A DNA stretch of 64,000 nt from a virus (Duplodnaviria; Caudoviricetes), in IMG/VR virus record IMGVR_UViG_3300014019_000001, positions 52,400 through 116,399 of that record. One strand, given 5' to 3'. Every line of letters begins with the position of its first letter. The stretch's first letter is position 1. Position numbers and translations under genes: made by a program. The notes beneath the pieces were generated by a model, which had not been told where the DNA came from, made no database searches, and saw nothing but the letters and a program-made list of their open reading frames with translations. Positions 1,052 through 38,365 of this stretch are shown one piece after another.

Positions 1052-1573
1052 TCACAAATACCTTCCCAGGAACTGGCGCACTTCGTCATCGGTCATGTCG
1101 CCGAGGTCGCTGGCGCCAGGGCAGACAAGAACGTCATCGCCGAGCTTCGCCAGCGGCACACCGCTTGGTCCAGGGTCACACACCGCAACCGTTGCTCTCG
1201 ATATCGAGCGCAGCCAAGGAATGATCTGCTTCGGATCGTTCGACAGCGTGCCGATGCCGGCCAAGCCCAGGTTATGAACGCGCACGGCATCGAACAGGCC
1301 TTCCATCAGGAAGAGAGGGCCGGGGCGGTCAAAGGTTTCCAGTCCGAACACAGCGATGTGCCCGTTTGATCGATAGGTGTAGTAACGCCCGTCGCGCGGA
1401 TGGTTCTTCGCCTTCTTGTCAGCATCTGGGCGATACTGCTGATAGCCGCACAGCACGCCTGACAGATTGTAGAGCATAAAGGTCGCGACACGCTCCCGCT
1501 CATCGATCGCTGGTGAATAGAGGGAGAAGTCGACGTGCCGGTCCTTCAGGTGCTGAATCATTGAAGGTGTCAT
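1052..1573 (-). CDS. Small stand-alone TOPRIM (primase-like) protein
   Basis: FLMEGLFDA and AVCDPG TOPRIM motifs, 173 aa. Confidence 0.7.
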   Translation of the reverse strand: MTPSMIQHLKDRHVDFSLYSPAIDERERVATFMLYNLSGVLCGYQQYRPDADKKAKNHPRDGRYYTYRSNGHIAVFGLETFDRPGPLFLMEGLFDAVRVHNLGLAGIGTLSNDPKQIIPWLRSISRATVAVCDPGPSGVPLAKLGDDVLVCPGASDLGDMTDDEVRQFLGRYL

Positions 1574-3623: not shown

Positions 3624-3823
3624 CACCAGCGTCCTTCTGTGATCATGCGCGCCTGAATGCCGTTGGCGTCGTAGTCGCCGGGACGAAGCTCCAACTGGCG
3701 CGCCGCTTCGTCGATGAAGTGGCTGTAACTCGGACCCATGCCGACGTCCGGGCATGCGTCGTCGTAGCGCTTGAGCGCCATAGCCAGTCGGAAGACGGCA
3801 ATGTTGGCGTCGACACACTTCAT
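3623..3823 (-). CDS. Hypothetical protein
   Basis: ATGA-coupled, 66 aa. Confidence 0.55.
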   Translation of the reverse strand: MKCVDANIAVFRLAMALKRYDDACPDVGMGPSYSHFIDEAARQLELRPGDYDANGIQARMITEGRW

Positions 3824-4377
3824 GGCTTCGACTCCAGGCCCATCATCAGGGTGCAGCACTGCGACCAGGCGCGCTGCCAGAGCGTTTCGTCGCCACCACG
3901 CAGGGCGCGTTCCAGCAGCTCCTTCTTCTCGCGCAGATAGACGGGCGCGAAGCCGGGGTCGTAAAGGGCGATCGAGGACGTGTTGTCGATCAGGTCGGCG
4001 ATCTTGATGGTCTTGGTCTGGTTCGACGCCTCGGCCAGCCGGTTGAGGTTGATCTCGAAGCGCTCCTTGCGATTGCCCGCCTCCAGACCGACATTCGTCA
4101 GCGCCTGGACCTTCAAGTAGACCACGGTGCCAAACTGGTCCTCGATGTGGTCGAGGGTGATGCCGGTGTCTTCCACCACGTCATGCAGCAAGGCGGCTGC
4201 GACGTCGGTCCAGTGATGCCCGTGGACGGTCTGCACGATGGCGGCCACGGCACGCGGATGGGCGATATAGGCTTCGCCCGTGTATTTGCGCACCTGGCGG
4301 GCACCGGTATGTGCCGCGAAGGCGAACAGATCCGCCGTCTGGATCATGCGAGATCCGAGGTTGGAATAGTGGTTCAT
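3820..4377 (-). CDS. RelA/SpoT-type HD hydrolase (Mesh1-like small alarmone hydrolase family)
   Basis: AHTGARQVRKYTGEAYIAHP, ALLHDVVED and IKIADLIDN motifs. Confidence 0.85.
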   Translation of the reverse strand: MNHYSNLGSRMIQTADLFAFAAHTGARQVRKYTGEAYIAHPRAVAAIVQTVHGHHWTDVAAALLHDVVEDTGITLDHIEDQFGTVVYLKVQALTNVGLEAGNRKERFEINLNRLAEASNQTKTIKIADLIDNTSSIALYDPGFAPVYLREKKELLERALRGGDETLWQRAWSQCCTLMMGLESKP

Positions 4378-4550
4378 CCGAAGAACCCTCCGCAGGCGAG
4401 CACGATCAGGGTGATGAGGGTGACGACGATCTGCACGGGCGCGCGAATGACGACCTCCTTCCCGTTCTTGGATGCTGCCGCGATCATGCCGAAGGCAAGC
4501 CACGCGAGGATGACCCACTGCGGCCAGCCGAAGGATGCGACGTTGATCAT
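4374..4550 (-). CDS. Small two-TM membrane protein
   Basis: 58 aa with two hydrophobic segments; GAGG RBS. Confidence 0.6.
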   Translation of the reverse strand: MINVASFGWPQWVILAWLAFGMIAAASKNGKEVVIRAPVQIVVTLITLIVLACGGFFG

Positions 4551-4576
4551 TCCATTTCCTCTCTCGTTTTGCGCTA

Positions 4577-4594
4577 TAGGTAAGCGCTTACTGA
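4577..4594. promoter_or_regulatory. 18-bp palindromic operator
   Basis: TAGGTAAGCGCTTACTGA vs consensus TAAGTAAGCGCTTACTTA. Confidence 0.75.
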
Positions 4595-4708
4595 TCATGC
4601 TCGGGGTCAAAGCGCCTTGGTCGGACAAGGCTTCCCACGAGTTTCGGGGTGCTACTGAAACGCCCTCATGCGTGACGGAGTTCGCACATACCCGCCGACA
4701 AGCTAAAC

Positions 4709-4795
4709 TGGAGTGCTGAGCAGGATTCGAACCTGCGACGCCCTTACGGGACCGGATTTGCAATCCGGCGCGTTCAACCACTTCGCTACCAGCAC
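4709..4795 (-). tRNA. tRNA-Cys(GCA) with long variable arm and encoded CCA
   Basis: Acceptor GTGCTGG/TCAGCAC plus U73-CCA; anticodon arm CCGGA-TTGCAAA-TCCGG; V-arm CCC-GTAA-GGG; T-arm GCAGG-TTCGAAT-CCTGC. Confidence 0.9.
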
Positions 4796-4797
4796 GA

Positions 4798-5529
4798 ATG
4801 ACGATGGACACAAGGCAAGCTCGAAGCTGCATCCGGTTCTCCCGGATCACTACGGGCGATCAACTCCGCAAGCCATCGTCATCTTGGCGAGCTTCCATCG
4901 CGCCTCCCCAGGTGTCTTTTTGCGACTGAGGTCTACCTGGTTACACCTGCTTGCCGTCGCTATTCAGCGCCAGCGAATTTCTCCTGGGAGAGACAGCCAA
5001 TCTCTCCTTTCTCAGCGCCGCAGATTGTCGAAGGCTTTCTCCGCTGCGCCACTACTCAGCCCGTCAATTCGGACCCAAGACCTTGTTGCCCATTCGGGCG
5101 AAACTGGCGCTCACGAGAGGAGTCGAACCTCTAGCCGGCTGGCCTGTGACTTGCGTCACTCCGACTGCTTCCGACGTCACCCGACAGCTATTCGACCCTT
5201 ATCCGGAGTCCAGATCGACATCGCCTGGAAGCTAGAGCATTGTGCGGCACTCTCTCCGCCCGTCACGATTTCACTCGTCGCCGAGGTCGCGACCCTCGGA
5301 TGCCTTAATTTTCAGCCCACGCTGGAGACATAGGATAGCTACTCCTCGCTCCGTCACTGACCAGATCAACGCCCGCCTAGAATAGGCAGAAGATCCAGAG
5401 GCTACCGGCGCCCGTGGCGCTTGGGCAGTGGGCATTATCGGCGCTTCAATTCTGGCGTTACCGCCAACTCTGACGCACCAATCTCACTTATTTCATTCCC
5501 GACACCTCATTCGCTGTTGCTGTGCGATC
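4798..5529 (-). ncRNA. Large structured non-coding RNA candidate (~730 nt, GOLLD-like context)
   Basis: No credible ORF; own promoter at 5551-5576; many helices, GNRA tetraloops, internal T-arm followed by CCA; abuts tRNA. Confidence 0.65.
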
Positions 5530-5576
5530 TAACTAAGTGCTTACATATCTCTTATAACGCGCTTAGCGTCGGGTCA
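5530..5576 (-). promoter_or_regulatory. Phage-type promoter plus operator driving the ncRNA-tRNA unit
   Basis: Minus strand TGACCC-N12-GTTATAA followed by operator at 5530-5547. Confidence 0.75.
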
Positions 5577-5593
5577 CTATTGGATTCTTCAGG

Positions 5594-5947
5594 TCAGTAA
5601 TCGGAGGCGTAGAACAGGGACAGGACGCGGATGGTCACGGCGGGATCCTCCGGGTGATTGCTGCCGCTCTCCTCGTCCAAGGCGTAGTAGTCGATCTTGA
5701 ACATGAAGGGCTTGCTCTCGCCCTCAACCGTGAACGTGCCGAAATCGTGCTCATGGTAGGGATCATTGTCCTCCGGCCAGTCGTCGAAGGTTCGCAGCGC
5801 CTGGATGATCGGTGTCAGCCGCTCACGGTCAGGGCGTTCCCGCGCGAGATCGCCGGTAAGAATGCTGTGACCGTTGATCGATCTTCCGGTTGTCCGAAGC
5901 TCGTCGTTGAGATTGCGGGTGCGGATTTTCTTCTCTTCCTCTGTCAC
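5594..5947 (-). CDS. DUF3768-family protein
   Basis: LNDELR...DNDPYHEHDFG...FKIDYY...P..P..T.RVL...ASDY signature. Confidence 0.8.
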   Translation of the reverse strand: MTEEEKKIRTRNLNDELRTTGRSINGHSILTGDLARERPDRERLTPIIQALRTFDDWPEDNDPYHEHDFGTFTVEGESKPFMFKIDYYALDEESGSNHPEDPAVTIRVLSLFYASDY

Positions 5948-6207
5948 CACAGATCCTCGGAATAGAGCGACGGCCCCTTGCTGTCGCTGATGATTTGCTT
6001 GGCGCGCCAGGCAATACCGTATGCCTCGACGCGGTTGACGTAGCGCCCGGTGCTTGTGACAAAGCCTTGGCATTGCGGGATCATGGCCGACCCGTTCAGC
6101 CCCATAGTCTGATCCATGGTCTGGATGATCGTGTGATGGCGCGCCGGTGGTGGTAGACTGACTATGGCGCCGAAATAGACGGCGGCCGCAGCTATGCGTT
6201 CATCCAT
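5944..6207 (-). CDS. Hypothetical phage protein
   Basis: RHH...QGFVTSTGRYVNR.EA...LYSEDLW, resembles a common phage family. Confidence 0.75.
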   Translation of the reverse strand: MDERIAAAAVYFGAIVSLPPPARHHTIIQTMDQTMGLNGSAMIPQCQGFVTSTGRYVNRVEAYGIAWRAKQIISDSKGPSLYSEDLW

Positions 6208-6403: not shown

Positions 6404-6885
6404 CAGAACCTCCCGAAGTTGGGGTTTGCTTGCTTCATGTCGGCGGTGAGCGCATCGACCAGCCGGGCGTGCATCTGCTCGCCGATGACCTTTGCCATCG
6501 CTAGGGAAGGGTATTCTTTGCCGACGCGGCGGTCTCCGACCCTGATGGTCCAGAAGCTGCGAGGTCCGGCTGCAGGGTTGGGGTTGCGCGGATCGTGCGC
6601 GTCACCTCTCACCCGGATGATGTCGACCTTGGCTGCCGGAAACACCTCGTTCTCGAAGGAGAAGTCTGGCGGCGATGGCGGCAGAGATCGCGGCCAGGTG
6701 AAGGACAGCTCATCGATCCAAAAATGCGTGATAGCCTTCCCGGAAAGCGTGCCGCGATCCTTGAGCTTCGTCAGGGTGAAATCGGACTTAGGATAGGGCG
6801 TTGGCAGTGCCATATCGATGATCGGCAGTTTTCTCATCTTGCCGAGGTCGTCTTCAAACTCCAGGGAGTAGCTGGTCAGAGCCAT
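6403..6885 (-). CDS. Hypothetical protein with C-terminal PNFGRF motif
   Basis: Ends MKQANPNFGRF. Confidence 0.7.
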   Translation of the reverse strand: MALTSYSLEFEDDLGKMRKLPIIDMALPTPYPKSDFTLTKLKDRGTLSGKAITHFWIDELSFTWPRSLPPSPPDFSFENEVFPAAKVDIIRVRGDAHDPRNPNPAAGPRSFWTIRVGDRRVGKEYPSLAMAKVIGEQMHARLVDALTADMKQANPNFGRF

Positions 6886-7115
6886 CTGGGCACCACATGG
6901 TCCACACGGTTGAATGGAATGAAGACCGAATTGCCATGAGTGCCCGTGTCGAGAAACAACTGCGTGTCCTGCTCGGTTTGCAGCTCCAGGAAATACTCAT
7001 TCATCGACTTCAACGTGCCTTGGAAACGATGCCCCGAGAGCGTGGTGACGATCAGCTCGAAGGCTTTGCCCTTCGCCTGCGTCTCGATGTGTTTCAGAAT
7101 CCGATAAGCGCTCAT
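6876..7115 (-). CDS. Sm/LSm-like small protein
   Basis: VTTLSGHRFQGTLKSMNEYFLEL (Sm1-like) and SVFIPFNRVDHV (Sm2-like). Confidence 0.5.
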   Translation of the reverse strand: MSAYRILKHIETQAKGKAFELIVTTLSGHRFQGTLKSMNEYFLELQTEQDTQLFLDTGTHGNSVFIPFNRVDHVVPRWL

Positions 7116-19708: not shown

Positions 19709-19755
19709 GCACTAAGCGCTTACTTATCTATCTATAGCGATAGCAAGGCGGGTTG
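19709..19755 (-). promoter_or_regulatory. Phage-type promoter plus operator
   Basis: CAACCC-N11-GCTATAG then TAAGTAAGCGCTTAG. Confidence 0.8.
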
Positions 19756-27610: not shown

Positions 27611-27656
27611 GAACTAAGCGCTTACTTATGTTGCTATAGCAGACGAGAAGAGGGTT
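27611..27656 (-). promoter_or_regulatory. Phage-type promoter plus operator
   Basis: CAACCC-N11-GCTATAG...TAAGTAAGCGCTTAG. Confidence 0.8.
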
Positions 27657-33454: not shown

Positions 33455-33529
33455 ATTGACTCCTTTTGGTGCTTGGATGCTACATATAGTAGCTAAGCGC
33501 TTACTTATGCGCTAGAGGAAAAATAAAGA

Positions 33530-38321: not shown

Positions 38322-38365
38322 GCTCTAAGCGCTTACTTACGTTATAGCGCTTAGAGCGAGGGTTG
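38322..38365 (-). promoter_or_regulatory. Phage-type promoter plus operator
   Basis: AACCC-N11-GCTATAA-CG-TAAGTAAGCGCTTAG. Confidence 0.8.

Follow-up and report, generated by a model that had tools for sequence, protein, structure and literature searches.

The window analysed here, 64,000 nucleotides (nt; 64 kb) of a 116.4-kb virus record in IMG/VR, contains between positions 4798 and 5576 a 0.8-kb stretch that is noncoding, structured on the minus strand, and oriented in the same way as the tRNA-Cys gene at its end. An initial annotation had described this stretch as a single ornate RNA of ~730 nt with kinship to the giant RNAs GOLLD and ROOL. We find that it is a chain of modules, which are conserved independently of one another, in different phages and in different contexts. 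Read 5' to 3' on the minus strand, their order is a promoter motif, a leader, module A, a tRNA look-alike, a hairpin, module C, a second hairpin, unit D, and tRNA-Cys.

Parts of the stretch and their mosaic conservation

The following parts can be distinguished.

5553-5574, minus strand: phage promoter-like motif ACCC-N11-CGTTATA (a repeated motif; putative function)
5533-5544, minus strand: operator-like near-palindrome directly 3' of the promoter motif (a repeated motif)
5306-5530, minus strand: leader ("unit 0") with the GNRA hairpin 5453-5466, the weakest part
5240-5305, minus strand: module A, a 65-nt RNA of three hairpins (85.9 bits with model R1; covariation)
5189-5239, minus strand: module B1, a short structured stretch common to pLM21S1 only
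5105-5188, minus strand: predicted anticodon-less tRNA look-alike, 84 nt (ARAGORN at lowered threshold; tRNA-Arg alignment)
5085-5105, minus strand: punctuation hairpin 1, with an A/U-rich flank, a 4-bp GC stem, a GAAU loop, and an AAC tail, starting at the A of CCA
4981-5084, minus strand: module C, ~100 nt with three helices, between the punctuation hairpins (three homologues)
4951-4980, minus strand: punctuation hairpin 2, with like flanks and GAAU loop and a 9-bp stem (matches in the Shinella plasmid and locus L011)
4798-4950, minus strand: unit D, three hairpins or stems up to the tRNA, the first hairpin conserved in locus L024
4709-4795, minus strand: tRNA-Cys(GCA), 87 nt, with a long variable arm (ARAGORN; 61.6 bits in Rfam)
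4600-4708, minus strand: conserved trailer 3' of tRNA-Cys, up to the operator copy at 4580-4591 (match in the Shinella plasmid)

The element that carries the stretch is a Rhizobium-type phage-plasmid. Its relatives include the Rhizobium phages B1VFA, RHph_N1_10, V1VFA-S, and RHph_X66 (115-122 kb) and the plasmids Shinella zoogloeoides unnamed3 (NZ_CP132310), Sinorhizobium pLM21S1, and Rhizobium pRlX6 (~117-119 kb), of which pLM21S1 has been described as a phage-plasmid (PMC7969092). Among the sequence labels used below, L001 denotes the Shinella plasmid, L002 pLM21S1, and L004 RHph_N1_10, and all others denote fetched viral or metagenome loci.

Comparison with these relatives by BLAST resolves the stretch into separate islands, with differing relatives and contexts. 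The island 5308-5241 is common to the Shinella plasmid, B1VFA, and more than 20 viral contigs, while 5275-5085 is common to pLM21S1 only (74% identical, L002 2171-2001). The island 5105-4986 recurs in RHph_N1_10 at a different genomic location, downstream of the genes for ribonucleotide reductase and glutaredoxin; 4980-4951 recurs in the Shinella plasmid and L011, 4949-4891 in L024, and 4804-4602, which comprises tRNA-Cys and its trailer, in the Shinella plasmid at 81% identity. What directly follows module A also varies: B1VFA has tRNA-Cys there, the Shinella plasmid another tRNA-like RNA, and L024 a punctuation hairpin. The closest syntenic relatives have only islands of the stretch in common or carry small open reading frames (ORFs) instead, the latter being the case in V1VFA-S, RHph_X66, and pRlX6. 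One conserved fold cannot explain such a scattered pattern.

The local helices proposed in the initial annotation were largely recovered, all on the minus strand: the 10-bp stem 4798-4807/4873-4882 is exact, and the hairpins 4831-4847 and 5281-5299, the 7-bp stem 4987-4993/5001-5007, and the GNRA hairpins 5146-5159 and 5453-5466 are present. The pairing 4909-4915/4943-4949 exists as well, but it is better drawn as 4934-4939/4909-4914, where compensatory changes occur in L024. The elements invoked to hold the whole together fared differently. The long-range stems 5107-5115/5413-5420 and 5134-5145/5399-5409 contain bulges or mismatches and have no comparative support, and 5055-5061, the presumed partner in a pseudoknot, belongs to a single-stranded block conserved in a module whose copies elsewhere lack the other half of the proposed pairing.

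One large RNA of ~730 nt, GOLLD/ROOL-like or of a new class, in which the modules would be domains and the GAAU hairpins building blocks, is therefore a quite unlikely description of the stretch. It would agree with an uninterrupted region on one strand that is poor in ORFs and preceded by a single promoter motif, and with the many hairpins, the fold energy of the whole being mildly below that of shuffled sequences (z -1.85 for the minus strand and -1.03 for the plus strand); GOLLD, too, lies near phage tRNAs and has variable domains. However, besides the imperfect long-range stems, the closest relatives have islands only, the modules are found alone or recombined elsewhere, module A is a unit of ~45-75 nt between tRNAs in other phages, and no large-RNA model of Rfam matches at E<=10.

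The Rfam 15 models were compared by cmscan with the 64-kb window at the gathering threshold and with 4500-5800 at E<=10. The former scan returned tRNA-Cys only, and the latter added nothing but weak chance matches, including one of 8.6 bits between beta-tmRNA and the T-arm alone; scans of 28 related loci likewise returned only tRNAs. GOLLD (RF01998), an RNA of ~600-800 nt recognized by its conserved 3' domain, has no covariance-model match in the window or in 4500-5800 at these thresholds, nor has ROOL (RF03087), which is also missing from 14 related loci, and at E<=10 neither group I and group II introns (4500-5800) nor YrlA (RF02553; window) were detected. Since Rfam adds only weak chance matches, GOLLD, ROOL, transfer-messenger RNA (tmRNA), introns, and Y RNA are unsupported.

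The stretch had also been called ORF-free. This holds for the minus strand, where stops occur in all three frames, but not for the plus strand, which has a 206-aa ORF (4713-5333). That this ORF, or one of the small ORFs on the minus strand (e.g. 5435-5271, 54 aa), is a real gene is very hard to believe, although the frames exist. The 206-aa ORF has no Pfam match and runs antisense through the tRNA; the 54-aa ORF terminates within module A, unlike in other loci, where module A usually begins 2-13 nt past the stop codon of the preceding ORF; and there is no similarity to the Shinella ORF at the equivalent position. The indels relative to pLM21S1 are of 1, 2, and 19 nt, not multiples of three, which argues against coding, and the covariation, which includes G-U pairs, fits a minus-strand RNA only.

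The stretch is bordered on one side by a DUF3768 gene (5594-6073, minus strand) and on the other by tRNA-Cys, a small ORF, and an HD-domain gene. The latter (3820-4518, minus strand), downstream of the RNA unit, encodes an HD_4 domain of the RelA/SpoT hydrolase type, and its syntenic counterpart in V1VFA-S is annotated as a (p)ppGpp synthetase/hydrolase. A Pfam survey of the neighboring genes revealed no integrase near the stretch.

Module A and its relatives in phages

Module A consists of three hairpins, P1 (5299-5294/5286-5281), P2 (5278-5275/5268-5265), and P3 (5259-5255/5248-5244); the segment 5308-5236 gives the 85.9-bit score with model R1, and the 116-kb genome has a single copy. Using its 18-nt core, we fetched 22 distinct sequences. 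They align into the same three hairpins, with compensatory changes in 9 of the 15 pairs; in the trimmed alignment 97.3% of the cells form pairs, and the covariation score is 0.405 compared to 0.138 in shuffled alignments (0 of 500 reach the observed value), a signal that collapses upon sliding of the partners.

A pattern with P2 left free retrieved no new variants of module A. With a looser pattern, anchored on the 3' half, module A turned out to be one subfamily within a much larger motif. This motif begins with an A and a stem that ACG/CGU closes and that holds a loop or insert of 3 to ~75 nt, and it continues with GAC-ARG, a 5-bp hairpin with a GAGAGA loop, and a final A. Membership was defined by a P2 closed by A-U, C-G, and G-C, the GAC-ARG linker, a 5-bp P3 with a GAGAGA-type loop, and an A after P3; the window copy has all invariant columns of the corresponding alignment (A4), its loop being a minor variant. 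In 42 members with short inserts both helices covary (95.9% paired; 0.311 compared to 0.088, with 0 of 500 shuffles reaching it).

The core pattern is present in at least 120 stretches of metagenome contigs and at least 80 of viral contigs, and in none of 401 alphaproteobacterial genomes; all 14 matches of the 18-mer in the genome collection were due to chance. Rfam has no match for a 101-nt slice with the window copy (E<=10) or for 14 other members (E<=1). Judging from these sequences, the core motif seems to represent a large RNA family confined to phages and not included in Rfam 15.

A tRNA lies on the same strand within 600 nt in 30 of the 129 distinct copies of the core motif, and an antisense one in none of the 129; in 12 of the 129 the distance from the motif to the start of the tRNA 3' of it is 3-13 nt. 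Several arrays have the motif directly adjoining the CCA of the tRNA before it, so that it occupies an inter-tRNA slot of 63-112 nt. In copies that no tRNA follows, the start codon of the next gene is a few to ~90 nt away. The downstream genes sampled often belong to DNA metabolism and include those for DNA polymerase, a Gp2.5-like single-stranded DNA-binding protein, a replication initiator, a Cas4-type nuclease, a 5-hydroxymethyldeoxyuridine (5-hmdU) DNA kinase, and TerC. Members of the canonical subfamily are usually located 2-13 nt past the previous stop codon, and the proteins encoded upstream are mutually unrelated.

We searched for a dedicated protein partner encoded beside module A by clustering the neighbors, and no family was found in more than 10 of the 174 loci. 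Because of this and the lack of relationship among the upstream proteins, module A looks autonomous, in the sense that it would act in cis or through a host factor. Two Sm/Hfq-like proteins of the window had been suggested as partners of the RNA; we detected one sub-threshold Hfq match and no LSM match. The Hfq-like signal (6957-7079, minus strand; 15.1 bits, E 0.002, Pfam cut-off 27) is the only one in the genome and falls in an ORF (6876-7115) on the same strand as the stretch, 1.4 kb upstream.

Several candidate identities of module A were considered and rejected. A riboswitch for one class of genes disagrees with the diversity of the genes 3' of the motif, which include tRNAs. The GGGAGA-type string recalls the start sites of T7-like RNA polymerases, but a DNA promoter of a phage RNA polymerase is contradicted by the covariation of both helices with G-U pairs and by the inserts of 3 to ~75 nt that P2 accepts. 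Threading by eye onto an HDV-like/theta fold (HDV, hepatitis delta virus) or a hammerhead fold failed, and among the hammerhead, twister, twister-sister, pistol, hatchet, and HDV-like ribozymes no Rfam model matches module A.

What module A does can be ranked only by our own estimates, which are not computed. A processing or stability element, possibly including a new self-cleaving ribozyme, is the possibility that we favor, albeit tentatively; a put-like antiterminator is conceivable; a trans-acting small RNA appears unlikely, and a ligand sensor even less plausible.

Three observations concern individual members. In the viral contigs L026 and L038, module A is located 2 nt past the stop codon of an ORF that resembles a tyrosine recombinase (integrase), as judged from the C-terminal sequence only. 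In L026, a tRNA-Leu follows ~200 nt downstream, and the context of an att region is possible. In L153, a metagenomic phage tRNA array that carries the motif, a segment (1380-1484, minus strand) matches YrlA weakly (33.9 bits, E 6e-4, cut-off 69).

tRNA-like RNA, punctuation hairpins, and module C

The initial annotation correctly noted a T-arm at 5116-5132, which has a canonical 7-nt T-loop and is followed on the minus strand by 7 nt, a G, and CCA (5105-5107). These elements form the 3' part of the 84-nt look-alike, which comprises an acceptor stem with five of seven pairs, a D-like arm, a 5-bp "anticodon" stem capped by GCAA (5146-5159), a 13-nt variable region, the T-arm, the acceptor strand 5109-5115, G 5108 in the place of G73, and CCA. 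ARAGORN draws it as a cloverleaf with a 2-nt "anticodon" at -ps80 only and not by default. As a full tRNA (RF00005) the segment 5188-5105 is disqualified by the 4-nt GNRA loop, which replaces the anticodon loop, and by the incomplete acceptor stem. The 3' 32-41 nt can be aligned to alphaproteobacterial tRNA-Arg genes (28 of 32 positions identical); matches with at most three mismatches were found in 40 of 301 genomes, and those of the loci that were run through ARAGORN proved to be tRNA-Arg. We therefore regard the look-alike, on the strength of this alignment, as a putative tRNA-Arg derivative that is no longer able to decode.

In its sole homologue, from pLM21S1, the GNRA-capped stem is kept via compensatory changes with a different GNRA loop, while exactly the 19-nt T-arm hairpin is lacking. 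Module B1, upstream of it, has no further homologue according to pattern searches of viral contigs and metagenomes: the module B pattern gave one chance match in viral contigs, and the module B/trailer pattern gave none in metagenomes. In the Shinella plasmid, right after module A, there is another RNA of 126 nt (L001 ~2125-2000, minus strand), in which all 7 bp of the acceptor stem are formed and a canonical T-arm, G73, and CCA are present. Approximately 95 nt replace its D and anticodon arms, and ARAGORN misses it by default; its acceptor stem we take to be of the tRNA-Glu type, by comparison with the E. coli tRNA-Glu stem (GUCC...GGAC, G73, CCA). This RNA and the tRNA-Cys in B1VFA indicate that the slot 3' of module A is usually filled by a tRNA or a tRNA-like RNA.

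The combination of a T-arm and CCA in an alphaproteobacterial phage calls to mind tmRNA, either one-piece or two-piece permuted (RF00023, RF01849, RF01850). ARAGORN finds none by default; position 70 is A, so that G3:U70 is missing, and there is no perfect 5' acceptor strand. The "tmRNAp" call that ARAGORN makes at a lowered threshold reuses tRNA-Cys and is not credible. A tRNA split by a group I intron was also rejected, as no intron matches at E<=10 and the T-arm is absent from the pLM21S1 homologue.

The punctuation hairpins are defined by an (A/U)UUC flank, a GC-rich stem, a GAAU-type tetraloop, an A-rich 3' flank, and location on the tRNA strand. Both hairpins of the stretch have all these attributes (at 5103-5085 and 4978-4951) and are the only two copies in the genome; 37 distinct copies were found in 24 fetched loci. 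Variant stems keep their pairing, namely two wobble versions, which are readable on this strand only, as well as a 5-bp and a 9-bp version. Within arrays, 90-350 nt separate the copies, which without exception share the strand of nearby tRNAs; in L012 and L018 the hairpin directly follows the CCA of real tRNAs. A near-identical copy of hairpin 2 follows the CCA of the Shinella tRNA-like RNA, and another is present in L011. Threading of the hairpin and its downstream sequence onto an HDV-like/theta or hammerhead fold failed, and there is no Rfam match. In L011 (~5840-5960, plus strand) a punctuation hairpin immediately follows the 5' half of a tRNA (acceptor strand plus D-arm), and the matching 3' acceptor strand lies ~60 nt further; this tRNA may be interrupted by, or fused to, the hairpin element.

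Module C, located between the two hairpins, has the helices H1 (5074-5070/5063-5059), H2 (inner stem 5044-5040/5024-5020), and H3 (5007-5001/4993-4987) and the conserved single-stranded blocks 5057-5049 and 5014-5006; its fold z is -2.13. The search pattern gave 59 matches, with the module itself in three of them only: RHph_N1_10 (L004), L019, and L085. By inspection, these homologues show compensatory changes in all three helices, so that the four sequences provide moderate support for covariation. In L019, punctuation hairpins flank the module on both sides, and in L085 two tRNAs follow it.

These data also bear on the possibility that the stretch is evolutionary debris, i.e. a decayed tRNA cluster or a recombination scar in an accessory slot, in which only tRNA-Cys and perhaps module A are functional and the T-arm/CCA piece is a dead tRNA-Arg fragment or an att relic. 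We consider this rather unlikely, although the similarity of the piece to tRNA-Arg genes is confined to their 3' third, its acceptor stem is imperfectly paired, its T-arm is deleted in pLM21S1, small ORFs replace the stretch in syntenic relatives, and the leader and unit D have no homologues. What speaks against decay is the maintenance of pairing: the GNRA-capped stem differs between the window and pLM21S1 by compensatory changes that leave it intact, and such changes also keep the module C helices and the unit D hairpin; furthermore, the punctuation hairpins are highly conserved across many phages. The tRNA-Arg-like piece in particular may be an attP relic, but the lack of a nearby integrase and the phage-plasmid nature of pLM21S1 (PMC7969092) weigh against it.

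A putative tRNA-operon-type unit and its known counterparts

The promoter and operator claimed in the initial annotation correspond to repeated motifs, whose sites here are 5574-5553 and 5544-5533. The promoter-like ACCC-N11-CGYTATA has 7 minus-strand matches in the window, compared to 0.45 expected, its form ACCC-N11-CGCTATA also being repeated on the minus strand far above chance. The operator-like palindrome GTAAGCNNTTAS (a GTAAGC..TTAS near-palindrome) has 28 matches, compared to 1.3 expected. The form GTAAGCGCTTAC/G occurs throughout the window, e.g. at 4580-4591, 5533-5544, 19712-19723, 27614-27625, 33493-33504, and 38325-38336, and the copy at 4580-4591 marks the downstream boundary of the unit. 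Repetition of both motifs so far above chance indicates a phage-specific transcription regulon. Inside the stretch, consensus scans detected no promoter of the sigma-70 type and, on the minus strand, no intrinsic terminator.

The leader 5306-5530 has stops in all minus-strand frames, a fold z of -0.84, and no BLAST homologue in phages, plasmids, or any fetched locus. In unit D, the first hairpin (4939-4934/4914-4909) has a conserved loop of ~20 nt and two compensatory pair changes in L024, and the remainder, i.e. the hairpin 4831-4847 and the 10-bp stem 4882-4873/4807-4798 abutting the tRNA, is seen in this window only. The tRNA-Cys (4709-4795, minus strand) has a stem-loop variable arm and U73; its long-arm form is also found in the Shinella plasmid, phage B1VFA, and viral contig L012, while pLM21S1 has the ordinary 76-nt form.

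Because of the order of the units, the lack of an internal promoter of the sigma-70 type or terminator, and the presence of like units around real tRNAs elsewhere, the stretch is probably a noncoding transcription unit of the tRNA-operon type, with a promoter/operator motif, at least five separable RNA modules that move independently, and tRNA-Cys. We infer that transcription starts from the motif 5574-5533 and extends through tRNA-Cys, and the cleavage sites and functions proposed below have the same standing. The primary transcript would most probably be cut into small RNAs, or its parts would be insulated from one another. Cutting could take place at the tRNA-like ends, with RNase P acting on the 5' side and the trailer being removed after CCA. 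Further cuts could fall in the A/U-rich single strands flanking the punctuation hairpins, where an RNase E-type site would lie beside a protective hairpin. RNase E favors A/U-rich single strands beside hairpins, which is why we liken the flanks to its sites. Module A would most probably act in cis, in processing, stability, or anti-termination, without a dedicated phage protein encoded adjacent to it. It is tempting to go further and regard module A as a new class of autonomous cis RNA (a self-cleaving ribozyme or an RNA directed at RNA polymerase or an RNase) that punctuates tRNA arrays and early DNA-metabolism operons, with the GAAU hairpins as a second dedicated processing signal; this scenario is speculative and has perhaps one chance in a few of being correct.

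Several points weigh against the tRNA-operon-type interpretation. The absence of the T-arm in pLM21S1 weakens the need for a tRNA-like end in processing. Most copies of the punctuation hairpin were fetched by an exact pattern, so that their uniformity is partly a matter of ascertainment. Modules B and C have one and three homologues, respectively, and their covariation thus rests on few sequences. Finally, the leader and much of unit D combine a lack of homologues with weak fold statistics and may be filler.

Non-tRNA RNAs in phage tRNA operons are already known, while the motif of module A is apparently undescribed, our survey of the literature having revealed nothing relevant on a named motif of this kind. 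The nearest counterparts of the stretch are the small RNAs of the T4 tRNA cluster, the Y-RNA-like tRNA mimics, and the theta ribozymes. The "species 1 and 2" RNAs of phage T4 are small, stable, structured non-tRNA RNAs of unknown function in a phage tRNA cluster; they share a transcript with the tRNAs and mature through the tRNA-processing machinery. The present modules resemble them as small structured RNAs among phage tRNA genes but constitute families of their own, which recur across many unrelated environmental phages. The put RNA of phage HK022, a protein-independent processive antiterminator, is a cis RNA of ~70 nt composed of stem-loops and located downstream of early promoters and before early genes. 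It offers a possible mode of action for module A; however, module A is found in inter-tRNA positions as well, and the conservation of its core across phages is far greater.

GOLLD and ROOL share with the present stretch a phage-borne, noncoding nature and proximity to tRNA genes, but the stretch is a chain of independent modules without a match to their models. The Y-RNA-like mimics such as YrlA have a tRNA-like domain with a T-arm and without a decoding anticodon loop, and occur in phage tRNA arrays; the element in the window differs by ending in a free CCA, like a tRNA. No Ro60/Rsr gene came to light, although no search was aimed at one. Theta (minimal HDV-like) ribozymes are tRNA-sized, lie beside tRNAs in phage arrays, and have been proposed to process tRNA trailers; they were reported only from gut phages of Bacteroidota and Bacillota (PMC10879173). 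Module A is similar to them in that it starts right after CCA in several arrays, but by eye it does not fit the nested double-pseudoknot HDV fold, and it has no HDV-type match in Rfam.

Apart from correcting the reading of this locus as a GOLLD-like giant RNA, our results suggest that "gene deserts" of phages are assembled from small exchangeable RNA cassettes tied to tRNA genes. Being located both in tRNA slots and before replication genes, module A is a candidate for a new element of RNA processing or transcription control. Together, the putative anticodon-less tRNA-Arg derivative and the punctuation hairpins provide testable predictions as to how phages may mature polycistronic noncoding transcripts.

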